Positions 7,289-61,716 of a DNA stretch of 64,000 bases are shown here, piece by piece; position 1 is the stretch's first letter; each line of letters opens with the position of its first letter. Under the pieces are notes generated by a model. The model searched no databases. It was not told where the DNA came from and saw only the letters and a program-made list of their open reading frames with translations. Origin of the DNA: Patescibacteria group bacterium (GTDB lineage: Bacteria; Patescibacteriota; Microgenomatia; Levybacterales; UBA12049); NCBI GenBank assembly GCA_038062115.1, contig JBBTXS010000007.1, forward strand, positions 5,448 to 69,447, written 5' to 3'. A program made the translations under genes and the position numbers.

Positions 7289-7771
7289 GTGAGATATCAA
7301 AGTATGGATGATAAATCAAATTCTACATCGCTATCGAATAATCTAGTTAAAAACTTAAATATTTCTAGTTCTTCTATTTTTACTTCAAAATTAATTATTG
7401 CATTAATTGTTGTAATTATACTTGGGGTTGGTACGGGTTATGTTTTTAGAAAAAAAGAGTCAATCAATAATACAGGCGTTGTAAAGGAATCTGTAAGCAC
7501 CTCTTTAGAGTCAAGGGAAGTTGTGGGGTCAAGTGATACTAAAACTTTTAAAGATACTGCGACTGGTAATTTAAAGGTAGGTGGAATCGGAGGAGAGGGA
7601 GCTTATCATTTAGTAAGGCCAGGCGGAGATAGCCAGAATGTATATCTTACTTCTTCCATAGTTGATCTGTCTATATATGTAGGCAAAAAGGTTACAGTAT
7701 GGGGGCAAACACAAAAAGCTCAAACTGCCGGTTGGCTAATGGATGTTGGGAGAGTAGAAGTTTTAGAATAA
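7289..7771 (+). CDS. membrane-anchored hypothetical protein
   Basis: ORF track 160 aa. TM segment LIIALIVVIILGVGTGYVF. Confidence 0.5.
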   Translation: MRYQSMDDKSNSTSLSNNLVKNLNISSSSIFTSKLIIALIVVIILGVGTGYVFRKKESINNTGVVKESVSTSLESREVVGSSDTKTFKDTATGNLKVGGIGGEGAYHLVRPGGDSQNVYLTSSIVDLSIYVGKKVTVWGQTQKAQTAGWLMDVGRVEVLE

Positions 7772-7774
7772 AGC

Positions 7775-8461
7775 ATGATAAAGTTAGAAAAAGTCTCAAA
7801 AAAATTTGCAACTGGAGCTTTTGGGCTTTCTGATATTAGCGTTGCAGTAGATAAAGGAGAATTTGTATTTTTGGTAGGGCCAACTGGTGCTGGCAAAACA
7901 ACAATTTTTAGATTAATCACTCGAGAAATGCTTCCGACATTAGGAACAATAATAGTAGATAATTGGGATGTCGTAAAGCTGCCTCATAGTAAGATCAATC
8001 ATCTTAGAAAAAAAGTGGGTGTGGTATTTCAGGATTTAAAACTTTTAATGGATAGGACAATATTCGAAAACACTATTTTGCCTCTTGAAGTTGCGGGAGC
8101 AAAGTCAACGGAGAGAGACAGGAAAACAGAAGAAGTGCTAGAAAAGGTTGGCATAATTAACCATAGAGATAAATTTCCAGTTCAACTTTCTGGCGGAGAA
8201 TTGCAACGGGCTGCAATTGCAAGGGCATTAGTTCTAACTCCCGAGATTGTTTTAGCAGATGAGCCAACTGGAAATTTAGATTCCGAAACCGCATTTGGAA
8301 TAGTAAAACTTTTAGAAGACATAAATAAAAAAGGGACAACAATTATTATGGCGACTCATAATACAGAAATTATTAAAAATCTTCCCAGAAGAGTTATTGG
8401 TTTAGACAAAGGAAGATTAGTTCGCGATGATAAGACTAAAAAAGAAGAAAAGAAAGGATAA
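7775..8461 (+). CDS. ftsE: cell division ATP-binding protein FtsE
   Basis: Walker A GPTGAGKTT, signature LSGGELQR, Walker B VLADEPTGNLD. Followed directly by ftsX. Confidence 0.9.
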   Translation: MIKLEKVSKKFATGAFGLSDISVAVDKGEFVFLVGPTGAGKTTIFRLITREMLPTLGTIIVDNWDVVKLPHSKINHLRKKVGVVFQDLKLLMDRTIFENTILPLEVAGAKSTERDRKTEEVLEKVGIINHRDKFPVQLSGGELQRAAIARALVLTPEIVLADEPTGNLDSETAFGIVKLLEDINKKGTTIIMATHNTEIIKNLPRRVIGLDKGRLVRDDKTKKEEKKG

Positions 8462-11490: not shown

Positions 11491-11546
11491 GTGTCATTCC
11501 CAGCTTGACTGGGAATCTAGATTCCCGCTTTCGCGGGAATGACGTG
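11491..11546. repeat. TGTCAT...ATGAC hairpin repeat (two-hairpin short form)
   Basis: GTGTCATTCCCAGCTTGACTGGGAATCTAGATTCCCGCTTTCGCGGGAATGACGTG. Outer IR at 11463-11487 / 11548-11568. Confidence 0.75.
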
Positions 11547-29461: not shown

Positions 29462-29532
29462 TGTCATGCCGAATTTATTTCGGCATCTAGTTCCTGAAAA
29501 GAGGAGATGCTGAAACAAGTTCAGCATGACAA
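29462..29532. repeat. TGTCAT...ATGACA hairpin repeat between secD and secF
   Basis: TGTCATGCCGAATTTATTTCGGCATCTAG...GGAGATGCTGAAACAAGTTCAGCATGACAA. Starts right at the secD stop. Confidence 0.75.
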
Positions 29533-52228: not shown

Positions 52229-52261
52229 GAAGTAATTCCTGTTCTAATTAGTCGCTTATTT

Positions 52262-52366
52262 TAGTAGACCTATACGAAAAAATTCGAACCTCTTTCATAT
52301 TAAAAAGGTAGTCGCTCTCTTCGTTCGCTCCTTCTATTTTATATTGCTCGGCCTTCGGCCTCGCTC
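52262..52366 (+). repeat. island left junction (core TAGTAG) plus arm W
   Basis: tagtagACCTATACGAAAAAATTCGAACCTCTT...ATTTTATATTGCTCGGCCTTCGGCCTCGCTC. An inverted copy lies at 58866-58962; the first ~31 and last ~32 nt are identical and the middle has diverged. Confidence 0.8.
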
Positions 52367-52947
52367 TTTTGTATTTTTTGCGATTGGACCGACGACTATG
52401 TGCGCGATTTTTTTTGGAACTCCAAAATGGATTATATCAGGTTTTTCTTTAATCCGTTTCAACCCACCCACCCGATTATGGTGGCGGCGACCCCGCCTTT
52501 GGGCGCTAGGTCCCGCTTGGGCGGGACTCGCCAATGTTTTTACTTTTCTAAAATCCTATACAGTCTCTTCCCAACTCCAGACCAATTTAGTATCGTTGCG
52601 CCGTCGGCGGGGTACTTCCGCTTTTCGCCCCCGCCGCTGTTATTTTACCCCTTCCTGTTCATGAAGCATCGTCCCGCCCTTGGCGGGACTTGTGGTAGCT
52701 CGGTTGGCTCACCCGCCTGTTTTCTAAAACCATAGTATGATTTCGGCGGGTTCGCGTTGGTCGGGCTACCTATCCAAAACATATCTTACGTTAAAGTTTT
52801 TCTGACGGTAGCCCTCCCTTTAGCAAAGATTCCATGATGGGGCGGGGTCGGCGGACGCCGCCAAAACTAATCGGCCAGAATGGTGGAAATTGGCCGTCCG
52901 TCTTTAATATTTCCCATGAAAGTGCTAGAATTCAAAGTAAACAAGAT
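52367..52947. ncRNA. GC-rich, hairpin-dense non-coding block (candidate structured RNA)
   Basis: Repeated GTCCCGC(C)-YTTGG-GCGGGAC hairpins at ~52510-52528 and ~52671-52689. A 9-bp stem GGTAGCTCG/CGGGCTACC (52694-52702 / 52762-52770) encloses CCCGCC...GGCGGG. Only overlapping low-complexity ORFs on both strands. Confidence 0.35.
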
Positions 52948-53787
52948 ATGGGAAAAGTTATTTCAAAAATAGATGCCATAAAGTTGTCAGGTCTTGACGA
53001 TAAAACATTTGATAACTATTTTAAAAATGCAGGTGAATTTGCTTGTCTTCCAAGAGAGGGAAAGACACGATTTCTTTTTGACGAAGACAAATTAAAAAGA
53101 TGGAAGGAAGATTACGAATGGAGGACTGTAGAGCTTGATTTTCAAGATTATGCTCTTTGCTTGGACTTTGCGCTAGCACAGCATTTTCGAGGGTATGTTT
53201 TATCTGATTGGGGTACTGGCCGCCAAAGAGAGTTTGGGCAGAAAATAACAAACTGGATAAAGGGTCAGCTGGGCGAAGTTGCTGTTAAGAAGTTTTTTAA
53301 AAAAGAGTTTGGAGTTGAAATAGAACTTGATTTTGATATCTATTCAAAAATTGTTCCGCAGGATATTATTGGAGTCTTTGAAAATGGGAAAATGAGGAAA
53401 CCTAAAACAGGAGTTGGCATAAAATCATCAAAGCCAAAAAGCGCATTTCTAGTGTTGGGATCAAACGAAATAAAACTTCCTGAAAGGAGATCGGATATTT
53501 ATGTCTATTGCAGACCAGATATTCCAGACGACCATCTGCTTAGATTAACAAAAGATCTGATAGTAAAAGCAGTAAAAGATAAGCCCCATTTCTCAAGGTA
53601 TAAAGATCAGTTGCCTGATTTTACAAATATTCCTTGTGAAATAGTCGGGTGGTGTAGGCCAGCAGAGTTAGAAGAGGTTTCAGGAATACCTGGACAAGAA
53701 TTCGATAATGGAACAAGATTTGTCAAAAAGTCCGGTTTACTCCATCGAAACAAGGACGAATGGAAAAAGCTTATACGAATGCTGTAG
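52948..53787 (+). CDS. putative type II restriction endonuclease (partner of the adjacent C5 methyltransferase)
   Basis: Convergent with dcm, overlapping by 17 nt. ELDFDIY...PQDIIGV...GVGIKSSKPKS is PD-(D/E)XK-like by eye. The ORF track N-terminal 38 aa fall in the GC-rich block; the ATG is at 52948. Confidence 0.45.
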   Translation: MGKVISKIDAIKLSGLDDKTFDNYFKNAGEFACLPREGKTRFLFDEDKLKRWKEDYEWRTVELDFQDYALCLDFALAQHFRGYVLSDWGTGRQREFGQKITNWIKGQLGEVAVKKFFKKEFGVEIELDFDIYSKIVPQDIIGVFENGKMRKPKTGVGIKSSKPKSAFLVLGSNEIKLPERRSDIYVYCRPDIPDDHLLRLTKDLIVKAVKDKPHFSRYKDQLPDFTNIPCEIVGWCRPAELEEVSGIPGQEFDNGTRFVKKSGLLHRNKDEWKKLIRML

Positions 53788-54916
53788 CTTGAGGAAAGTT
53801 AAATATCTCAATTTGCCTAATTTGGCGGTTTAATACGTTTCCATTTGTGAGTTTTGCAGGAATCCATTCGTATTTAACTCCGGCAAATGTTTTTAGCACG
53901 GCTTCAACTATACCTTTAGCGGCTTTAGGAGATACAGCCATTCCTATTTGTTTCCTAACACTTTCTTTTGATCCCTCAAAAACAAAAGTGTCAGGGAAAG
54001 TCTGTATCCTAGCTCTTTCTCTATTTGTTAATGCTCTGTTTTCTTTCCAATGGTAGCCATGAGTGCCGCCCCCGCCGCTGCCAGTTAATGTATAGGACGG
54101 TTTGTCTGGATGAAGCCTTTTATATATCTGGCTCATTCTAGCTCCTTTGACATTTAGTCTTAAATGTTCAGGCAATCCTTCGAACCAGACATTCTCACCG
54201 GGCGGGATATACTTTAGTCTTTCAACAACCATTTTACCTTGAGCCGTAATTTCATTATTCGAAGCGTCTTGCGGAATAGGAGGATTGTCTATAGCTTCTC
54301 TTGCAGAAACATATCTGCCAGCAGTTGTAGGAATTGGTACTTTAAACTCTAATCCAAGATCTTTTCTAATTCCTATAATTACAACTCTATGGCGGGCTTG
54401 CGGAACCCCGTACTCTTCAAATTTATATAGGTGGGGAGTTAGCCTATATCCTTTACCGGCATTTTCTAAATCTTTAAGAATTTTATTAAAAGCTCCGCCG
54501 CTGTTGGCGCTTTGCAGACCGCTTACATTTTCGGCAATGAACCATTTTGGATTGTGAATATTTATTGCTTTTACGCCGTAAGTATAAAGAGGACCGTATT
54601 TTCCGTTAAAGCCTTTTTGTTCTCCCACTATGCTGAAATCATTGCATGGAAATCCAAAAGCCAAAACATCAAAGGATGGCACTTTTTTGAAATCAATTGT
54701 TTCTACAGGAGCGCAGACGACATTTTTTAAATTTCCTCCGTGAATATTTCTTGCGTAAGTTCTGCAGGTGTCTTCATCGATATCATTAGCCCAGACAGGC
54801 ATCATTTTGTATAAATTGTTGTTAGAGTCTTTTACAGCGGCAAGCATTGCTCCCAGAGATAGTCCCCCTGGTCCGCAAAATAACTCGGCAAGTTTAAATA
54901 TCTTTGTATTTTTCAT
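53771..54916 (-). CDS. dcm: DNA (cytosine-5)-methyltransferase
   Basis: Motif I FCGPGG, motif IV GFPCNDFS, motif VI AENV, motif VIII QARHRV, C-terminal RIQTFPD. Confidence 0.9.
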   Translation of the reverse strand: MKNTKIFKLAELFCGPGGLSLGAMLAAVKDSNNNLYKMMPVWANDIDEDTCRTYARNIHGGNLKNVVCAPVETIDFKKVPSFDVLAFGFPCNDFSIVGEQKGFNGKYGPLYTYGVKAINIHNPKWFIAENVSGLQSANSGGAFNKILKDLENAGKGYRLTPHLYKFEEYGVPQARHRVVIIGIRKDLGLEFKVPIPTTAGRYVSAREAIDNPPIPQDASNNEITAQGKMVVERLKYIPPGENVWFEGLPEHLRLNVKGARMSQIYKRLHPDKPSYTLTGSGGGGTHGYHWKENRALTNRERARIQTFPDTFVFEGSKESVRKQIGMAVSPKAAKGIVEAVLKTFAGVKYEWIPAKLTNGNVLNRQIRQIEIFNFPQATAFV

Positions 54917-55310
54917 AGGCAGTTCTTAATATAAGATAACATCGTTTTGCATTATTTGCTATTTCATGCTCCCAAAATCTTAATACTTTAATATTTCCAT
55001 TTTTTAGTTCTAGATTTATCTTTTTGTCTCTGCTGACATTATTTTTAATTTTTCTGTCCCAATAATCATTTTGCGATTTAGGTCTGATAAAATCAATGGG
55101 ACATTTGTGCCAGAAACAGCCGTCAATAAATACAGCTAATTTTTGTTTCGGAAAATAAATATCCGGTTTTCCTGTAATTTTTGATTTTATCCTATATCCT
55201 TTTAACCCTTTTTTCCATATAAATTTTCTAAATTTTAGCTCAACTAGAGTGTTTGAGCTTTTTATCCGAGACATATTATATTTTCTCTGCTTCGGCGTAT
55301 GGGTATCCAT
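54894..55310 (-). CDS. vsr: very short patch repair endonuclease
   Basis: 138 aa. MSRIKSSNT, GKPDIYFPKQKLAVFIDGCFWH, LRFWEHE motifs. Overlaps dcm by 23 nt. Confidence 0.85.
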   Translation of the reverse strand: MDTHTPKQRKYNMSRIKSSNTLVELKFRKFIWKKGLKGYRIKSKITGKPDIYFPKQKLAVFIDGCFWHKCPIDFIRPKSQNDYWDRKIKNNVSRDKKINLELKNGNIKVLRFWEHEIANNAKRCYLILRTAYEKYKDI

Positions 55311-55342
55311 GCCGAAATTATAGACAAAAAGCTTATTAAAAA

Positions 55343-55966
55343 CTAGTTCTTTCTTAGCAAATCTATAAATTTACCCTGTATTACGAATTGTTTTCCAATT
55401 TTGGGTTGATAAGCTGGATCATCACTTTCTGGTAAAAGCATAACGTAATCCTGTAGTCGTTTAAATCTTTTTAGCGTTGCTGTTTCGTCATCTGGGTCAA
55501 AAGCGACTACGATATCTCCATTGTTAGCACTATTTTGCGATGCGATTATAGCTAAATCGCCTGGATTTATTCCCGCTTTTAGCATACTTGTTCCTTTGAC
55601 TCGAAGTATGAAGACATCTCTTTGGCCTTTTGCTAAGAGTAGGGGAATCTTTTTATAACCTTCAATACTCTGTTCAGCTAAAGAACCATATCCAGCCCTT
55701 ATCTCGCCAAGAATAGGAACATTAATCATAGTTTCTTTATTAATCTTTGTGGGCTTACGTAGTATTTTAATTGCCCGGCGAGAATTTTTTTCACGCTGAA
55801 TATAGCCTAGTCTCTGCAGTTTATCTAATTGCAAAACAATTCCGCGCGTGGACTTATTCCCAATGATGGTCTTGAGCTCTGTTATTGAAGGGGAATAGCC
55901 ATTTTTATTTTGGAATTGAATAATAGTTTGTAAAACTTTTTCTGTTTTTGAAAGTAAATACTGCAT
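55343..55966 (-). CDS. lexA: LexA-like repressor (wHTH + S24 autopeptidase)
   Basis: LexA DNA-binding domain NGYSPSITELKTIIGNKSTRGIVLQLDKLQRLGYI. Cleavage-site-like GEIRAGYG, catalytic VKGTSML and TLKRF. Confidence 0.8.
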   Translation of the reverse strand: MQYLLSKTEKVLQTIIQFQNKNGYSPSITELKTIIGNKSTRGIVLQLDKLQRLGYIQREKNSRRAIKILRKPTKINKETMINVPILGEIRAGYGSLAEQSIEGYKKIPLLLAKGQRDVFILRVKGTSMLKAGINPGDLAIIASQNSANNGDIVVAFDPDDETATLKRFKRLQDYVMLLPESDDPAYQPKIGKQFVIQGKFIDLLRKN

Positions 55967-56055
55967 AATAAGTGGTTATTATTTACCACCTTGCAAATAG
56001 TACCACTATCTGTAATAATATGTCAATAAGCAAAATAAAGGCAGGTGAATAAAAG

Positions 56056-56322
56056 ATGGTTTACGCAATAACATATGATTTAAACAAGCCTGGACAGAAT
56101 TATCCTAGTTTATATAGTACCATAAAAAGACTAGGCCACTGGATATGGCCACTACAAAATCTTTGGTTCATAGATTCAGAGAATGGAGCACAAGAAATAG
56201 CAAATGAAATACATACAGTTATTGATCAAAATGATTCTGTTTTTGTAGTAAGAGTTTATCGTGGTCAATGGGGTTCGTGGATGTCAAGTGAAACAAATCA
56301 ATGGATTAATGCAAGGACATGA
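56056..56322 (+). CDS. small alpha/beta hypothetical protein (88 aa), divergent from the lexA-like gene
   Basis: MVYAITYDLNKPGQNY...LQNLWFIDSENGAQEIANEIHTVIDQNDSVFVVRV. The beta-alpha-beta-alpha-beta pattern is reminiscent of ferredoxin-like/Cas2-like small proteins (weak). Confidence 0.4.
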   Translation: MVYAITYDLNKPGQNYPSLYSTIKRLGHWIWPLQNLWFIDSENGAQEIANEIHTVIDQNDSVFVVRVYRGQWGSWMSSETNQWINART

Positions 56323-56568
56323 GGATGTAAATAAATAATGGGATTGTCACAATATTAAATAACAAAACAAGGAAGTTTCCGTCAAGTCAAGCGAGAGGGA
56401 TGAGCTTACCAGCAACTTAGCAAAAGATTGTCCTGAATTTAATAAAGTTAGATCTAGTACAAAGTTAGAAGCTTTAAGAAAAAGATTCGATGTTGCTTCT
56501 ATAAACAATGTTAGAGAGGAATTGAGAAGGTTGGATGAATAGAATTTTTCTCTTGGCGGTTTCTTTCA

Positions 56569-56592
56569 TTTTAATTTGACTTCCTATCCACA
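56569..56592 (+). repeat. 24-nt direct repeat DR1 upstream of the RT gene
   Basis: TTTTAATTTGACTTCCTATCCACA versus DR2 TTTTAATCTGACTTCCTAGTCACA (21/24). Contains TTGACT followed 17 nt later by TATTTT, a possible promoter. Confidence 0.6.
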
Positions 56593-56616
56593 GAAGAGTA
56601 TTTTATCAACTAGTTT

Positions 56617-58014
56617 ATGGATAATTTCAATGAGTTCAGAAAATACTTTAATAAAACCTTTTGGAAAGTTTTTAGTAATAAAAATATTTTTATAGATAAC
56701 CCATCTAATAAAGAAAAGTTTACAAAAAGTGTTTTTAAGGAAATCTATTTTAAAAAATATTACCCTTCCATCCCTCAACTATATATAGATATTAATAAAG
56801 GCAACGGTGTAACAAGAATAATTCCAGTTTTTTCACTTAAGGACTATTGTGTTTATTATTATTGTATAAAAAAATTAGAAACGAAAATTGCATTTAATAG
56901 AATTCCAAATACTTTTGGAGGATGGACATTAGGCGGTTTAATCAGAAAAAACGAAGAAGACGAAATGATAAAAAGAAGAATGGATTACAATAAATTTGAA
57001 GATTTTATGGCTGAGCTAAACGGTATTTCCGTTAGTCAACATTCATTTAATCCTTTAGCGTGGGCTAAGGCATACGGCGATTTGAACTCTAAACTATACG
57101 CCTCTTCTAAAGAAAAAAAATATAATTTTGTTGCTGAGCTGGATATATCAAACTTTTATGATTCTATTCGTTTAGATATTTTAGAGCTTAAGATAAGAGA
57201 GATTTCTGATGATAAATATTCAGAGATTATTGCTATACTTTTCCTATTTTTAAATTATTGGAATCGAAAAACTAATTCATACAATAAACAAACAGTGGGA
57301 ATACCGCAAGATGCTCTTGGAGATTGTTCTCGAATTTTGGCAAATTTTTATTTGCAGTCTTACGACAAATTCGTTTATGAAATTTGCAAAAAAACGGGAT
57401 GTAAATACTTAAGATATGCAGATGACCAATTTATTTTTTCTAATAGCCAAGAAGAATTAAAATATCTGATATATATGATGTCTAAAAAATTAAATAGTAT
57501 GGGCCTTTCTGTGAATCAAAAGAAAGTCAGAATTTTTCCCACGGCAGGGTTAATAGAATATCGTGCTTTTAAAATATTCGATATTGTGAAGTCTAGCAAA
57601 GATAAGAATGATAAGGTAAAAGTTGAAACGCTTGTCAATAAGTATATTGAGCTAGTCAAGGAGAACAAGTTGGCAAAGATTAAGGATAATGGAAAATCTA
57701 TTTTAACCAGAATTTTATTTTGTCCTGCTCTTAAGAGAATTGATGTGAGCAAAAGAAATACTATTGTCAATTTCTTAATAGACGAAAACTACTTAGAGTT
57801 TTGCAGAACTAACCATTTGCTAAAAATATATGATTTACTAGAAAAAAATCAAAAAGGAAAATTTGTTCTTAAATTGAAAAAACTTACTAAAAAATTAATG
57901 CACAACTCTTTTCATTATGAGGTTTTAGGCTTTTTTGATAAATATAGCATTCATACTAAGCTTATAAAGACAAGATTGAAAAAATTAGAACAAGATCTCA
58001 ATCTTTTAATCTGA
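56617..58014 (+). CDS. stand-alone reverse transcriptase (Abi/UG-like, not group II or retron by visible features)
   Basis: RT motifs GVTRIIPVFSLKDY (1/2), ELDISNFYDSI (A), GIPQDALGDCSRILANFYL (B), LRYADDQFIF (C, YADD), GLSVNQKKVRIF (D/E). A ~150-aa helical C-terminal extension. No maturase or endonuclease domain. Confidence 0.85.
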   Translation: MDNFNEFRKYFNKTFWKVFSNKNIFIDNPSNKEKFTKSVFKEIYFKKYYPSIPQLYIDINKGNGVTRIIPVFSLKDYCVYYYCIKKLETKIAFNRIPNTFGGWTLGGLIRKNEEDEMIKRRMDYNKFEDFMAELNGISVSQHSFNPLAWAKAYGDLNSKLYASSKEKKYNFVAELDISNFYDSIRLDILELKIREISDDKYSEIIAILFLFLNYWNRKTNSYNKQTVGIPQDALGDCSRILANFYLQSYDKFVYEICKKTGCKYLRYADDQFIFSNSQEELKYLIYMMSKKLNSMGLSVNQKKVRIFPTAGLIEYRAFKIFDIVKSSKDKNDKVKVETLVNKYIELVKENKLAKIKDNGKSILTRILFCPALKRIDVSKRNTIVNFLIDENYLEFCRTNHLLKIYDLLEKNQKGKFVLKLKKLTKKLMHNSFHYEVLGFFDKYSIHTKLIKTRLKKLEQDLNLLI

Positions 58015-58027
58015 CTTCCTAGTCACA
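58004..58027 (+). repeat. 24-nt direct repeat DR2 overlapping the RT stop, upstream of the nuclease gene
   Basis: TTTTAATCTGACTTCCTAGTCACA. TATAAT at 58043-58048 lies 8 nt before the nuclease ATG. Confidence 0.6.
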
Positions 58028-58056
58028 AAATTTTCTTAGTGGTATAATCATTATTA

Positions 58057-58734
58057 ATGTCACAACTATACAAATTGAGTCCCTCGGATTTTGCCTATTT
58101 GTGGGAAGATTGTAAGCATTGTTATTACCAGAAAGTAAAATTTGGCATTACCTATTCTAGTCCGTTTCCTGCGATGTTTGGTAGGATTAATAAATTGCTT
58201 CAGACTTCAATCATGGGAATGAATCTTCAAGATGTTCATCCCGATCTTCCGAGCGGAATCATTACGGTTCAGGAAGGATTTATGAAATCAAAACAAATTC
58301 CGGGGACAAACACTTATCTAAGCGGAAGGTTTGATATTTTGACAAAACTAGACGATGGGACACACGCTATTATTGATTTCAAAATTACCAGCCCTGATGA
58401 AGAAAAAATCCTCAAAAAGTATTCGAGTCAACTGCACGCTTATAAATTCGCATTGGAAAATCCACTGGAAGGAGAACCGATTAAAATTTCAAAAATGGGG
58501 GCTGTAAGCATAAATCCTGATGAGATGAAGTTAGTTAATGGAAAAGTAGTTTTTACAGCTACGCCTACATGGTATCCGATTGAGGAAAATATGGATAATT
58601 TCTACAATCTTATTCACGAAATTTCGACAGTTCTAAGCGGGCCGTTACCTCCAACAGCTGATACTTGTAATTTATGTATTTACAGAAAATCTTTTGAACC
58701 AAAAGCTAAAATTGTAGACGATATTCCTTTTTAA
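58057..58734 (+). CDS. Cas4/RecB-like PD-(D/E)XK nuclease with four Cys
   Basis: GRFDIL...HAIIDFKIT (D...DxK), QLHAYKFAL (QxxxY), CKHC near the N-terminus and CNLC near the C-terminus (possible Fe-S or Zn site). Confidence 0.7.
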   Translation: MSQLYKLSPSDFAYLWEDCKHCYYQKVKFGITYSSPFPAMFGRINKLLQTSIMGMNLQDVHPDLPSGIITVQEGFMKSKQIPGTNTYLSGRFDILTKLDDGTHAIIDFKITSPDEEKILKKYSSQLHAYKFALENPLEGEPIKISKMGAVSINPDEMKLVNGKVVFTATPTWYPIEENMDNFYNLIHEISTVLSGPLPPTADTCNLCIYRKSFEPKAKIVDDIPF

Positions 58735-58865
58735 TCCGCTATTGATATAGAAAATCTCAGTTGAAATCTTCTTTGGAACTGCTATATTAAAATCGTAGAG
58801 TGGACATTTGAATTTTGGAAAAATTTTTGCGTTTTTTACCTTGCGGGAACGAGCCGACAGTTTTT

Positions 58866-58962
58866 GAGCGAGGCCGAAGGCCGAGCAATATAAAATAGTA
58901 GGAGCGGAAGCGACTACCGCTTTAGAATAAAAGAGGTTCGAATTTTTTCGTATAGGTCTACT
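58866..58962 (-). repeat. inverted copy of arm W plus core (hybrid junction B)
   Basis: The reverse complement reads CAGTAGACCTATACGAAAAAATTCGAACCTCTT...ATTTTATATTGCTCGGCCTTCGGCCTCGCTC. Continuous with the X arm at 58958-59056. Confidence 0.8.
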
Positions 58963-59056
58963 GAAACAGATTTCTCTGAAGCCAGAGCTGGGGAGGTCGG
59001 GGCAGAAGGGCGGGAATGGAGCTCCGCAAAGCCCAATTTGAAAGAAACGGAAAGCT
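58958..59056 (-). repeat. left copy of a 99-bp perfect inverted repeat (arm X)
   Basis: Exact reverse complement of 60515-60613 by manual comparison. Imperfect homology extends about 20 nt further (59057-59073 vs 60494-60514). Confidence 0.85.
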
Positions 59057-59106
59057 ACCGGTAAAAAGAAGTGAAAAAACGCAAAAATTAAGGAACAAGA
59101 ACTACT

Positions 59107-60723
59107 ATGAAATATATAGCATATTGCAGGAAATCAACGGACGAGAAAAACAAACAAGTTCTCTCGATTGACCAGCAAATAGCAGAATTAAAAGAATTTG
59201 CTACCAGAGAACATTTAGAAGTAGTTGATTTTGTAACAGAAGCAAAAACTGCAAAAGTTCCGGGGAGAGAAAAATTCGCGCAGGTTTTAAAAAGAATAGA
59301 AAAAGGAGAAGCTCAGGGAGTTGTCTCATGGCATCCGGACCGTCTGGCAAGAAATTCTATCGACGGCGGAAAAGTTATTTATCTTTTAGATACCGGAAAA
59401 CTTTTGGACTTAAAATTTCCGTCTTTCTGGTTTGAAAGTACTCCTCAAGGAAAATTCATGTTGTCAATCGCATTTGGACAATCCAAGTATTACGTTGATA
59501 ATCTTTCCGAGAATGTTAAAAGAGGCATGAAACACAAGCTACGTGTCGGTTTATGGCCGTTAAAAGCTCCTTTAGGATACATAAATGATTCGAACACAAA
59601 AACAATTCAAATACATCTGGAAACCTCTCGGATTATAAAGAAAGCATTCCAGCTTTTTGCAGAAGGTAATAAATCCTTCAGAGAGATATCTCTTTTTCTT
59701 AGTAAATTCAAAATTGATCGAGGATGGAAAGGTAAAGACGATAGGCCATTTCGTATAACACGAATTAAGAACATGTTTACAAACAGATTTTACATCGGAA
59801 TTATGAAGTACAACGGTGAATACTATCAGGGATCGTATAAATTATTCATTACGAAGAAATTATTTGACGAAGTTCAAAAGCAAGTAGACCGAATAGAGAG
59901 ACCAAGATATAGAGGGCATAATTTTGCATTTAGCGGATTTGCGCGTTGCGGAGAATGCAAAGCTTCTATTACATCAGAACAACACTTAAAGAAATATAAA
60001 AATGGAACTTCCCAGACGTTTATGTATTACCGCTGTACAAAAAAATTAAAACCCTGTACTCAAAAATATGTTACGGAGGATAAATTAGAAAATCAGATAA
60101 GGGAAATGCTGGAAAAAGTATCGTTTCCGCAAGAATGGGCTGCTGATTGGTATAGTTGGTTAGACAGAGACGAAAAAGAAGAATTAACTGTAGCCGAGGA
60201 TAATATTGGAAAGTTAAGGGTTGAAGTGGAAAAAGTAGACAAAAGACTGAATTTTCTTTTGGATAGTTTTCTTGATCAAGTTATTGATTCCGAGATTTAC
60301 AAGAAAAAGAAGAACGAATTATTCGAAGAAAAATTAAAAATAACTGAGGAAATTGAAAAAATAAAAGAGAGTGGCTCAAGTTGGCTCGAACCTATGAGAG
60401 AGTTCGTAGATAGGGCTCTGCAGAGCCAAAAAATCGCACGTGCAAAAAATACAAAAGAAGATTTGGCAATCTTCGCAAAAACTGTCGGCTCGAACTTCTT
60501 TTTAACCGATCGGCAGCTTTCCGTTTCTTTCAAATTGGGCTTTGCGGAGCTCCATTCCCGCCCTTCTGCCCCGACCTCCCCAGCTCTGGCTTCAGAGAAA
60601 TCTGTTTCAGTAGCCCCAAGGGGAGTCGAACTCCTGCCTGCGGCAAGCGAAGGACCGATCTTCACCTTAACCTGCCCGCCGCTTGTGCCCCCAAGGGGAT
60701 TCGAACCCCTGTTACAAGGTTGA
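59107..60723 (+). CDS. large serine recombinase
   Basis: Resolvase catalytic start YCRKSTDEKNKQVLSIDQQ...VSWHPDRLARN, recombinase domain, zinc ribbon CGECK...YYRCTKK, coiled coil. The last ~70 codons read through arm X, a pseudo-tRNA and into antisense tRNA-Glu, so the true C-terminus is uncertain. Confidence 0.85.
   Translation: MKYIAYCRKSTDEKNKQVLSIDQQIAELKEFATREHLEVVDFVTEAKTAKVPGREKFAQVLKRIEKGEAQGVVSWHPDRLARNSIDGGKVIYLLDTGKLLDLKFPSFWFESTPQGKFMLSIAFGQSKYYVDNLSENVKRGMKHKLRVGLWPLKAPLGYINDSNTKTIQIHLETSRIIKKAFQLFAEGNKSFREISLFLSKFKIDRGWKGKDDRPFRITRIKNMFTNRFYIGIMKYNGEYYQGSYKLFITKKLFDEVQKQVDRIERPRYRGHNFAFSGFARCGECKASITSEQHLKKYKNGTSQTFMYYRCTKKLKPCTQKYVTEDKLENQIREMLEKVSFPQEWAADWYSWLDRDEKEELTVAEDNIGKLRVEVEKVDKRLNFLLDSFLDQVIDSEIYKKKKNELFEEKLKITEEIEKIKESGSSWLEPMREFVDRALQSQKIARAKNTKEDLAIFAKTVGSNFFLTDRQLSVSFKLGFAELHSRPSAPTSPALASEKSVSVAPRGVELLPAASEGPIFTLTCPPLVPPRGFEPLLQG
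60515..60613 (+). repeat. right copy of the 99-bp perfect inverted repeat (arm X + core AGTAG), inside the recombinase 3' end
   Basis: AGCTTTCCGTTTCTTTCAAATTGGGCTTTGCGGAGCTCC...CAGAGAAATCTGTTTCAGTAG. Confidence 0.85.
60614..60645 (-). other. degenerate tRNA-Glu-like 3' fragment (T arm + acceptor)
   Basis: The minus strand GCAGGCAGGAGTTCGACTCCCCTTGGGGCTA resembles the tRNA-Glu 3' end GTAACAGGGGTTCGAATCCCCTTGGGGGCA. No matching 5' acceptor strand. Confidence 0.45.
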
Positions 60724-60757
60724 GAACCTTGCGTCCTAACCGCTAGACGATAGGGGC
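60686..60757 (-). tRNA. tRNA-Glu (anticodon CTC), no encoded CCA
   Basis: Hand-folded: GCCCCTA/TGGGGGC acceptor, CAAGG-TTCTCAA-CCTTG anticodon arm, AGGGG-TTCGAAT-CCCCT T arm. 72 nt. Confidence 0.85.
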
Positions 60758-60822: not shown

Positions 60823-61254
60823 CTATTTTTTATTGGGCAATTGGTCTAAGAAGTCTCTCGCTTTTACAATTTTGATTTCTTGATATTCTCCAAGCGACAA
60901 AAGATGTTTTTTGTCTCCTGTTACGATATAAGAGGCTGAACCTTCGATTGCGCAAGCAATAATCTTGTTATCATCAGGATCGTCTTTTATTACATCAACC
61001 TCAAGTGTTCCAGCAGTAACAAATGCTTTTGTAGAAAGAGCATCAATAACCCCATTAATCTCACTAGAGGTAAGAGAAAACTGCTTTTTAATTTCAGGCC
61101 GTTCTAATACATCCTTTACCTCTTGAATTATTGGAGGAGAAGTTACAAGTATATACTCGCCATTTTTCCATGCTTCGAGAAGTTGATAGGGGGTTGTGGT
61201 TACAGTGCCCGCTCCTGAAATAATGAGGTTAGTATCAACTACGGCCCTGTACAC
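60823..61254 (-). CDS. PIN-domain toxin
   Basis: AVVDTNLIISG...LLEAWKNGEYILVTSPPIIQEVKDVLERP...IVTGDKKHLL. Confidence 0.8.
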   Translation of the reverse strand: MYRAVVDTNLIISGAGTVTTTPYQLLEAWKNGEYILVTSPPIIQEVKDVLERPEIKKQFSLTSSEINGVIDALSTKAFVTAGTLEVDVIKDDPDDNKIIACAIEGSASYIVTGDKKHLLSLGEYQEIKIVKARDFLDQLPNKK

Positions 61255-61549
61255 GTTTTCCTCTCCTTACTTTTTCGACTGCATCACCCACCACTTTCTC
61301 GATTTGTCTGGGAGGGATACTTTTGGTTTTTGCTCTTATCTTGTCAAATACCACAAATCCTTTTTTCCATTCCCCATCAGTAAATCGGAGACGTGGATTC
61401 ATTAGGCGATCGTATTCCTTATAATCTATAATTACCGCCTGCGGTTTATTAAATCGAGTGATCACCACATTAGTTCTACCATATATTGCGGTGTTTAAAA
61501 TTTCGGCAAATTTGTTTCTTACATCTTGTGCGGCGACCTTTATTGTCAT
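61235..61549 (-). CDS. Phd/YefM-like antitoxin
   Basis: MTIKVAAQDVRNKFAEILNTAIYGRTNVVITRFNKPQAVIIDYKEYDRL. Overlaps the PIN gene by 20 nt. Start chosen at MTIKV. Confidence 0.65.
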   Translation of the reverse strand: MTIKVAAQDVRNKFAEILNTAIYGRTNVVITRFNKPQAVIIDYKEYDRLMNPRLRFTDGEWKKGFVVFDKIRAKTKSIPPRQIEKVVGDAVEKVRRGKRVQGRS

Positions 61550-61716
61550 ATCAATCTCCTTTCTTAGATTATAATAAAAGAAGTTATAAAATGTCAATAA
61601 GTTACATACTGTATGTTTAATAACTATTCCTTACGGAAAATAGAGCGAGAGAAAAACGTCAAGCTGAGCTTGGCGCAAAAAATTTTAAAGAACTTCTATT
61701 TTGCAAAATTAATGGA

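Follow-up and report, generated by a model that had tools for sequence, protein, structure and literature searches.

A UG13b reverse transcriptase cassette, probably a single-gene defence unit, among independent lexA, Cas2-fold and Cas4-like genes of a patescibacterial serine-recombinase island

The gene cluster at positions 55343–58734 of a 64-kb window of contig JBBTXS010000007.1 (assembly GCA_038062115.1; the window is the whole stretch of DNA that was analysed, and unassigned coordinates refer to it) encodes a LexA-type repressor, an 88-aa small protein, a reverse transcriptase (RT) and a Cas4-like nuclease. A preliminary description of the same sequence had presented these four genes as a candidate undescribed RT-based defence module. 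The present analysis favours a mosaic of three independent units, carried by a serine-recombinase island beside a tRNA-Glu gene, in which the RT unit is probably a single-gene defence enzyme acting alone. Judged by the sequence comparisons below, the association of RT, Cas4-like, Cas2-like and LexA genes is a chance neighbourhood brought about by insertion and not a multi-gene system. The first unit, a lexA-type repressor gene with the divergent 88-aa Cas2-fold gene, would be a derepression switch like those of prophages and integrative elements. The second would be the defence unit, a cassette of ~1.45 kb (56571–58017) with its own promoter and one gene, that of the RT, which would work alone. 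The third would comprise the Cas4-like PD-(D/E)XK nuclease gene, likewise with its own promoter, widely conserved in the lineage and RT-free elsewhere. All four open reading frames (ORFs) were recovered with the coordinates given to them earlier, as was the 42-nt spacing between the RT stop and the nuclease start; small ORF and RT are likewise separated by a gap, of 294 nt and not the 295 nt reported. The features of the cluster are as follows.

55343–55966, minus strand: LexA-type repressor, 207 aa, with a winged helix-turn-helix and an S24 self-cleaving domain (Pfam, NCBIfam)
55972–55989, no strand: candidate operator palindrome GTGGT-N8-ACCAC in the lexA/88-aa intergenic region
56056–56322, plus strand: Cas2-fold protein, 88 aa, PHROG 1090 family (PHROG, AlphaFold2 [AF2], Foldseek)
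56571–58017, plus strand: RT cassette, the sole DNA homology with locus L071, which has an 88%-identical RT
56576–56604, plus strand: the RT's own putative sigma70-like promoter, TTGACT-17 nt-TATTTT (promoter scan)
56617–58014, plus strand: UG13b RT, 465 aa, palm/fingers and a C-terminal all-helical domain (PADLOC, AF2)
58020–58048, plus strand: promoter-like site of the nuclease gene, TAGTCA-17 nt-TATAAT with TG extension (promoter scan)
58057–58734, plus strand: Cas4/RecB-like PD-(D/E)XK nuclease, 225 aa, with 2+2 cysteines (Pfam, PADLOC)

The RT sequence, which carries ...KYLRYADDQFIF... and has its YADD motif within LRYADDQFIF, was assigned with profile hidden Markov models (HMMs). Besides Pfam RVT_1 (E 4e-18), it was matched by the PADLOC model of UG13b (RT_UG13b, PDLC03750) with 433 bits and an E-value of 2.6e-130, the alignment linking residues 3–458 to profile positions 2–428 of 430. 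The next PADLOC models, namely UG21, UG19, UG23, Drt8 and UG13a, scored at most 101 bits, which was the value for UG21. By this placement, which had been proposed as a check, the RT is a full-length UG13b member. Mestre et al. 2022 (NAR; PMC9226505) divide UG13 into UG13a and UG13b and count UG13b among seven groups for which individual loci led them to predict a defence role; the enzyme is thus already catalogued, and the word "undescribed" could not be maintained. The name DRT10 was considered for UG13 and rejected, DRT10 being UG17.

The earlier suspicion of a DRT-like UG/Abi enzyme, distinct from the RTs of retrons, group II introns, diversity-generating retroelements and CRISPR systems, was borne out. 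An Rfam scan matched tRNA-Glu and no other RNA family. For a retron, there was no Rfam match, the upstream gap proved unstructured and retron RT models scored far lower (RT_II-A, 1.3e-19); for a group II intron, Rfam returned no intron, and NCBIfam group_II_RT_mat matched just the RT core, with 80 bits where the cut-off is 300. Repeat scans of 51–62 kb and of the whole window yielded no CRISPR-like, template/variable or tandem repeats, which leaves a diversity-generating retroelement without a long direct repeat pair and a CRISPR adaptation module without a regularly spaced repeat family or tandem array; nor was Cas1 found among the neighbouring genes with Pfam and PADLOC. These results agree with the absences listed in the preliminary description.

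The RT structure was predicted with AF2 from a 68-sequence alignment (pLDDT 89, pTM 0.85). The model comprises an RT core followed by ten helices, in keeping with the complete palm and helical tail recognised earlier, and residues 327–464 form the C-terminal alpha-helical repeat (alphaRep) by which class 1 UG/Abi enzymes are distinguished. In the alignment of 68 homologues, D176 and Y267/D269/D270 are invariant, and A268 completes the YADD motif in the window RT. Whole-chain comparison against the PDB with Foldseek ranked DRT6 (9wy8, TM-score 0.52) and DRT4/UG15 (9vdv and 9l9s, 0.53–0.55) best, with AbiA (0.49) and AbiK (0.45–0.51) also high, and group II intron RTs, retron RTs, DRT9 and DRT2 poorer (0.36–0.41). 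A profile search of PDB sequences gave, in addition, an alignment with UG15 over RT residues 261–440, which extends into the helical domain. Invariant residues that may serve in priming are Y48, in an N-terminal loop, and S138 and S143, in the low-confidence loop 136–146; we take them from the alignment as leads only.

For the genomic comparison, 70 loci of RT relatives were fetched, one genome per species (loci are designated by L numbers), spanning CPR (candidate phyla radiation)/Patescibacteria, Bacteroidota, Cyanobacteria, Proteobacteria, Planctomycetota and archaea. The closest RT relatives were added to this set, namely those of L071 (88% identity), L072 (68%), L207 and L208 (66%), and L087 (99%), the last evidently from the same strain. 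Breakpoints were mapped by blastn of positions 55300–59100 against all loci. DNA homology with L071 was confined to 56571–58017 (87% identity), beginning 46 nt ahead of the start codon and ending 3 nt beyond the stop codon, and that with L072 to 56573–57945. In the RT-free nuclease loci, homology ran from 58015 (L076) or 58032 (L073–L075) onward, and in L086 the homology around the 88-aa gene stopped at 56343. The GC content is 0.29–0.30 across the RT versus ~0.35 for the window, and the RT promoter TTGACT-17 nt-TATTTT recurs at the same offset in L071, L072, L087 and L207. Because of the sharp homology breakpoints, the separate promoters of RT and nuclease and the GC drop, the RT is regarded as a separate insertion: as read from these alignments, it is a discrete, promoter-bearing cassette of ~1.45 kb that was inserted directly upstream of a pre-existing nuclease gene.

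The homology borders coincide with a 27-nt direct repeat that flanks the RT ORF (56569–56595 and 58004–58030; 23 of 27 positions identical). Shorter versions flank the RT in L071 (6957/8392), L207 (~1680/3128) and also L072, and the motif AAT(T/C/G)TGACTTC... (AATTTGACTTC) is present at both cassette ends in four independent contexts. The motif continues as TTGACT-17 nt-TATTTT upstream of each RT, and downstream as well in L207; in L072 it occurs six times at gene junctions in or downstream of the RT (6953, 8400, 9203, 9972, 10398 and 11624). In 55 other UG13b loci the repeat is missing, with scores equal to the shuffled null, and the motif is not enriched in the genome of the window (4 matches versus 4.07 expected). 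A cassette-specific site of recombination or retro-mobility was rejected on the grounds of this absence and of the promoter-like reading. Judging by its sequence, the end motif is probably a promoter of the island or cassette and may also have a role at the cassette boundary.

The 294-nt gap upstream of the RT folds no better than shuffled sequences (z +0.43) and is not conserved in L071 or L072. A non-coding RNA (ncRNA) in this gap was rejected, there being no structure, no Rfam match and no conservation. Most of the gap is occupied by an open frame on the plus strand (56363–56543, 59 codons, ending ...LEALRKRFDVASINNVREELRRLDE*), which resembles what is left of the C-terminus of a vanished gene; a gene remnant was nevertheless rejected, since none of the fetched loci contains a homologue of this frame.

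The neighbourhoods of RT relatives point to the same autonomy. By tblastn, the window's nuclease, LexA and 88-aa protein were found in none of 73 independent RT loci, and conversely the RT was found in none of six nuclease loci and none of 127 loci of the 88-aa family. The four-gene RT-nuclease module put forward initially could therefore not be upheld. The same holds for a conserved RT-nuclease adjacency, the loss of which the preliminary description had itself named as decisive: among 47 genes immediately downstream of RTs, one alone encodes a distant relative of the nuclease, and the breakpoints separate the RT from it. Clustering and Pfam annotation showed the flanking ORFs of the RT to be heterogeneous, with restriction-modification (R-M) as the sole recurrent theme. 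Type I HsdM/HsdS are encoded near the RT in ~16 loci and HsdR in 13, in addition to type III-like methylase/helicase pairs. UG13b RTs often lie within type I R-M operons, arranged hsdR-hsdM/S-RT or hsdM-hsdS-RT-hsdR (L001–L003, L007, L011, L013, L014, L018, L035, L037, L057 and L061). Several of these embedded RTs overlap the upstream gene or sit ≤10 nt from the next gene; such junctions suggest co-transcription with the R-M genes. Because the RT there overlaps or abuts its neighbours, several of these loci cannot accommodate an ncRNA next to it. In L071, the RT is flanked by a ResIII helicase gene and a GmrSD gene. As far as gene content can tell, these R-M-rich neighbourhoods agree with the predicted defence role of UG13b, and the embedding in type I R-M operons is useful for choosing representatives to be tested.

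The nuclease was matched by Pfam PDDEXK_1 (4.6e-8) and weakly by PADLOC Cas4 (6.8e-7), which supports its earlier description as a Cas4/RecB-type enzyme with 2+2 cysteines. It gave no match to Pfam Cas_Cas4, its cysteines are arranged 2+2 and not 1+3, and its contexts are CRISPR-free; by these features, the protein is Cas4-like, not Cas4. Homologues number ~965, and the best 120 of the 965 are 66–90% identical and belong to Levy-, Davies- and Gottesmanbacteria. The six nuclease loci without an RT (L073–L078) cover three lineages; the promoter region of the nuclease is common to RT-free loci, and in one nuclease locus the gene is flanked by ksgA and a lysR-type gene, with uvrA and uvrC nearby. 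By distribution, the nuclease is a lineage-conserved gene and not a partner of the RT. FtsK-alpha/FtsK-gamma fragments were further seen beside DUF2779 or the window-type nuclease in L071, L073 and L074, and the Cas4-like and FtsK-like genes resemble the backbone of a single CPR element family.

The repressor was matched by Pfam Peptidase_S24 (2e-23) and LexA_DNA_bind (3e-9) and, over its full length, by the NCBIfam lexA equivalog TIGR00498 (153 bits versus a cut-off of 111). Its translation shows the motifs IRAG-Y, GTSM and LKRF, corresponding to the Ala-Gly site and the Ser/Lys dyad, so the original assignment as a LexA-type repressor stands. On the equivalog profile, it scores as a bona fide LexA; it is the regulatory gene of the island, outside the RT unit. 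The palindrome GTGGT-N8-ACCAC at 55972–55989 is a candidate operator of a CPR-type LexA, proposed from its sequence; it has no second perfect copy in the 64 kb, and the promoters of RT and nuclease lack one in their vicinity. An operator shared with these promoters was rejected, as the single palindrome lies between lexA and the 88-aa gene. The lexA/88-aa intergenic regions of relatives gave no alignment.

The 88-aa protein resembles Cas2 weakly in sequence, although over its full length (Pfam E 0.004, 17.7 bits, below the cut-off of 23.8; PADLOC 6.8e-4), and more clearly in its predicted structure. The AF2 model (pLDDT 90) has a beta-alpha-beta-beta-alpha-beta ferredoxin-like fold, and the top twelve Foldseek matches in the PDB are all Cas2 (TM-score 0.50–0.63), in accordance with the ferredoxin-like, Cas2-like character proposed before. 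Both this protein and the RT tail had been singled out for structure prediction, and the model of the 88-aa protein is confident. A sequence search against the PDB returned nothing significant, which leaves the fold comparison alone informative. At the end of strand 1, an invariant TYDLN motif corresponds in position to the metal-binding Asp of Cas2, and D8 does not vary among 11 aligned close relatives. The protein also matches PHROG 1090 (5.6e-24), a phage family with no function assigned. A word-based search retrieved 11 relatives, and an exhaustive profile search 4,632 cluster representatives (E≤1e-3). Profile and model comparisons thus indicate a remote, CRISPR-independent Cas2 homologue from a very large, unnamed family whose members are stand-alone proteins of the Cas2 fold. 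The family is accompanied neither by Cas1 nor by a CRISPR array.

In L079–L081 (52% identity) and L086 (72%), the 88-aa homologue is divergent from an S24/LexA-type repressor gene; in L082–L084 it faces an HTH plus Peptidase_M78 pair resembling ImmR/ImmA, and in L085 it lies near integrases. Neither an RT nor the nuclease occurs in 119 further loci of the family (L088–L206, viral and metagenome contigs). Across the wider family, the upstream partner is an S24 protein in 9 of 110 loci and an XRE-type HTH protein in a similar number. A universal pairing of the Cas2-like family with a repressor was rejected on this count, and the pairing holds for the close subfamily. Going by gene arrangement, lexA and the 88-aa gene are an independent, switch-like module typical of mobile elements.

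A mechanism for the RT alone may be proposed by reference to the class 1 UG/Abi enzymes, which are oligomers that produce protein-primed, untemplated single-stranded DNA (ssDNA) and cause abortive infection (PMC13174585, PMC12632851); AbiK primes on Tyr44 (PMC9508834), and DRT4, a single-gene system, on Tyr125 (PMC12783706). The lack of a conserved partner, the lack of room for an ncRNA and the class 1 fold would therefore argue for the same single-gene mechanism as in DRT4. By analogy with AbiK, Abi-P2, DRT4 and DRT6, an oligomeric RT would prime DNA synthesis on a Tyr or Ser residue of its own and make untemplated ssDNA, the accumulation or stabilisation of which upon phage infection would be toxic and lead to abortive infection. 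Single-gene, protein-primed, untemplated synthesis with abortive infection is the likely mechanism of the RT, for which we infer the phenotype, the priming, the lack of a template and the trigger.

Two other views of the RT were weighed. It might be RNA-templated, like the class 2 enzymes DRT2, DRT9 and DRT10 or retrons, with an ncRNA encoded either upstream, in the 294-nt gap, or within the RT transcript. This non-coding gap is unusually long, several UG RTs use adjacent ncRNAs (PMC12632851), and the end motif recurs at both cassette ends in the four contexts described above. Set against this, the gap has neither significant folding nor an Rfam match, and the homology with L071 and L072 reaches no further than 46 nt upstream of the ATG; in many relatives, next to no intergenic DNA borders the RT at either end; the fold is nearer to the class 1 untemplated enzymes than to DRT2/DRT9; and the end motif reads as a promoter, complete in L207 and repeated at six gene junctions in L072. 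An RNA template is thus considered very unlikely. We also hold it for highly improbable that the RT has no defence function and is the engine of a small retro-mobile cassette copying itself between islands. The sharp homology borders, the 27-nt flanking repeat and the distribution of UG13b across bacterial phyla and archaea would fit such a cassette, but the repeat is missing in the 55 other loci and is better read as a promoter element that precedes neighbouring genes too, no endonuclease or integrase domain was found in the RT, and the neighbours are consistently R-M or defence genes, loci of the kind from which Mestre et al. predicted defence.

Several observations weigh against a single-gene defence enzyme acting alone. 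Defence, priming and untemplated synthesis are extrapolations for UG13b; the literature searched contains no experimental report on any enzyme of the group, which is mentioned there only by Mestre et al. The class 1 assignment of UG13b draws on HMM ranking and fold comparison, in which a TM-score of ~0.5 is moderate, and many of the loci come from metagenome-assembled genomes and short contigs. The stretch from the 88-aa gene to the RT yielded no terminator, and read-through from the LexA-controlled promoter is possible. Further observations link the RT to Cas4-like nucleases, and with them to a functional two-gene system, with or without LexA/Cas2-like control, in which the DNA product of the RT could be processed or held in check by the exonuclease. 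The two genes of the window lie on the same strand, 42 nt apart and with no terminator between them. In L007 (Patescibacteria, RT 60% identical), a PDDEXK_1 nuclease (7e-14) is encoded 9 nt past the RT (7399–8172, 257 aa); it is a distant homologue of the window nuclease (24% identity; hhalign probability 94% with the family HMM). In L207 and L208, a DUF2779 protein is encoded directly downstream of the RT (3178–3474 in L207), and it is 58% identical to a DUF2779 protein whose gene lies two positions downstream of the RT in L071 (10245–11726) and whose N-terminal domain is Cas4-like. L013 and L014 also contain a DUF2779 gene (1–354), 5.6 kb off and on the other strand. Besides the window, these make four independent CPR contexts; in 119 control loci, which were not taxon-matched, no Cas4-like gene was found. 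Moreover, DRT4 immunity hinges on the balance between its ssDNA product and a host exonuclease (PMC12783706).

These links could mean that the partnership is kept in CPR bacteria by non-orthologous replacement of the nuclease: the UG13b RTs would have repeatedly recruited Cas4-like ssDNA exonucleases from more than one family (PDDEXK_1 in the window and L007, DUF2779 in L207 and L071), which would trim or restrain the protein-linked ssDNA. If so, the nuclease would be a built-in counterpart of the host-exonuclease check of DRT4, and the RT-nuclease pair of the island could also receive SOS input by read-through from the LexA promoter. Both the two-gene system and its repeated recruitment nevertheless appear unlikely. 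Of 48 immediate downstream neighbours, 46 are unrelated to any Cas4-like protein, and homology to the window nuclease is limited to the distant case of L007. The nuclease family is abundant and RT-free elsewhere, with a conserved promoter of its own. The Cas4-like genes differ in spacing, order and orientation, a GmrSD gene intervening in L071, and the 88%-identical RT of that locus has a different immediate neighbour. Finally, the positives are all CPR loci, where such nucleases and FtsK-like backbone genes are common. We retain as probable the mosaic in which the RT cassette acts alone.

The setting of the cluster in an integrative island next to an R-M and Vsr system was correctly recognised in the preliminary description. 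The main features outside the cluster are as follows.

52259–52366, no strand: left island repeat, an inverted copy of 58866–58966 (58 nt, 90% identical; 41 nt, 98% identical; blastn 86% over 108 nt)
52834–55310, no strand: neighbouring defence cargo, type II R-M plus Vsr (PADLOC, Pfam)
58866–59060, no strand: internal att-like junction, the reverse complement of which equals 60511–60616 joined to 52259–52366
59107–60723, plus strand: large serine recombinase of the island (Pfam, PHROG)
60511–60616, no strand: right island repeat, a 106-nt inverted copy of 58955–59060 (98%)
60685–60757, minus strand: tRNA-Glu(CTC) (ARAGORN, Rfam)

The defence cargo consists of a restriction endonuclease (52834–53787, plus strand; PADLOC REase_II 1.8e-19), a Dcm methylase (53771–54916, minus strand; PADLOC MTase_II 4.8e-114, Pfam DNA_methylase 5e-71) and Vsr (54894–55310, minus strand; PADLOC 1e-13, Pfam 8e-24). 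The recombinase matches Pfam Resolvase, Recombinase and Zn_ribbon_recom and the integrase family PHROG 95 (3.5e-72). The right and left ends joined in the reverse complement of the att-like junction are those of the 52.26–60.62 kb segment, with the crossover at TTT(C/T)AGTAG. The recombinase gene is enclosed by the 106-nt inverted repeats (98%) and the cargo by inverted repeats of ~108 nt, and what looks like an internal inverted attP-like junction stands directly upstream of the recombinase gene; L073 and L074 carry a related att-like sequence past the nuclease, oriented the other way relative to that gene. This architecture suggests recombinase-mediated inversion or nested elements. At the right end, a 23-nt 3' fragment of tRNA-Glu (60614–60636, 91% identical) precedes the intact gene by 75 nt, and the recombinase ORF runs through both fragment and tRNA-Glu, antisense to the tRNA (ARAGORN, Rfam); the C-terminus of the recombinase after residue ~480 is probably not real protein.

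Some further observations were made in the window. The left end of the island (52370–52830) is GC-rich (0.45) and non-coding, folds beyond shuffled sequences (z -4.9 on the minus and -3.4 on the plus strand) and holds near-identical GUCCCGC...GCGGGAC hairpins; it matched no Rfam family at E≤1 (two chance-level matches had E ~8) and has no homologue in the fetched loci. Just outside the island, by tRNA-Glu, a PIN-domain-like ORF (143 aa) overlaps an upstream ORF of 120 aa (60823–61597, minus strand), and their translations look like a toxin-antitoxin pair. Hairpin-containing direct repeats of 52–58 nt (76–83% identity) were also noted at 11492–11543/12672–12723 and at 29475–29532/30478–30535/35982–36009, and may be small repeated intergenic elements.

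With this analysis, a false lead is removed, as the cluster had resembled a CRISPR-less adaptation system or an SOS-gated RT system. What remains of value is a candidate of ~1.45 kb, promoter included, for testing UG13b, a group predicted to be defensive; it comes from a lineage of ultra-small genomes in which immunity is little known. Possibly worth more than the original finding are the family of Cas2-fold proteins and the island's unusual arrangement of inverted att-like sequences.

Among known systems, RT-Cas1/Cas2/Cas4 adaptation modules likewise combine an RT with nearby Cas2-fold and Cas4-like proteins. Unlike them, the window has neither Cas1 nor an array, its RT matches the RT region of PADLOC Cas1_IIIb at 3.5e-18 versus 2.6e-130 for UG13b, and its Cas2-like and Cas4-like genes are each distributed RT-free and CRISPR-free. 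The switches of prophages and integrative and conjugative elements (CI/LexA-type S24 repressors; ImmR/ImmA) similarly have a repressor gene divergent from a small first gene; here, in contrast, the small gene is Cas2-like and not of a known Cro, Xis or antirepressor type, and the repressor scores as LexA. Within the group of AbiK, Abi-P2 and AbiA, the RT resembles AbiK and AbiA in fold, and the position of the invariant Y48 recalls Tyr44 of AbiK, which is a lead only; unlike AbiA it has no HEPN domain, and unlike AbiK (~600 aa) it measures 465 aa. DRT4 (UG15) and DRT6 (UG12) are closer, being single-gene systems with an RT and a C-terminal helical domain and providing the best fold matches, yet the identity in the structural alignment is 12–15% and PADLOC Drt6 matches at only 8.7e-15. 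With the UG13b group itself, the RT shares the length class, the intact RT motifs and the occurrence in defence islands beside R-M genes, with no difference at the family level; this copy is set apart by its residence in a Patescibacteria-type (CPR) genome, within a serine-recombinase island.

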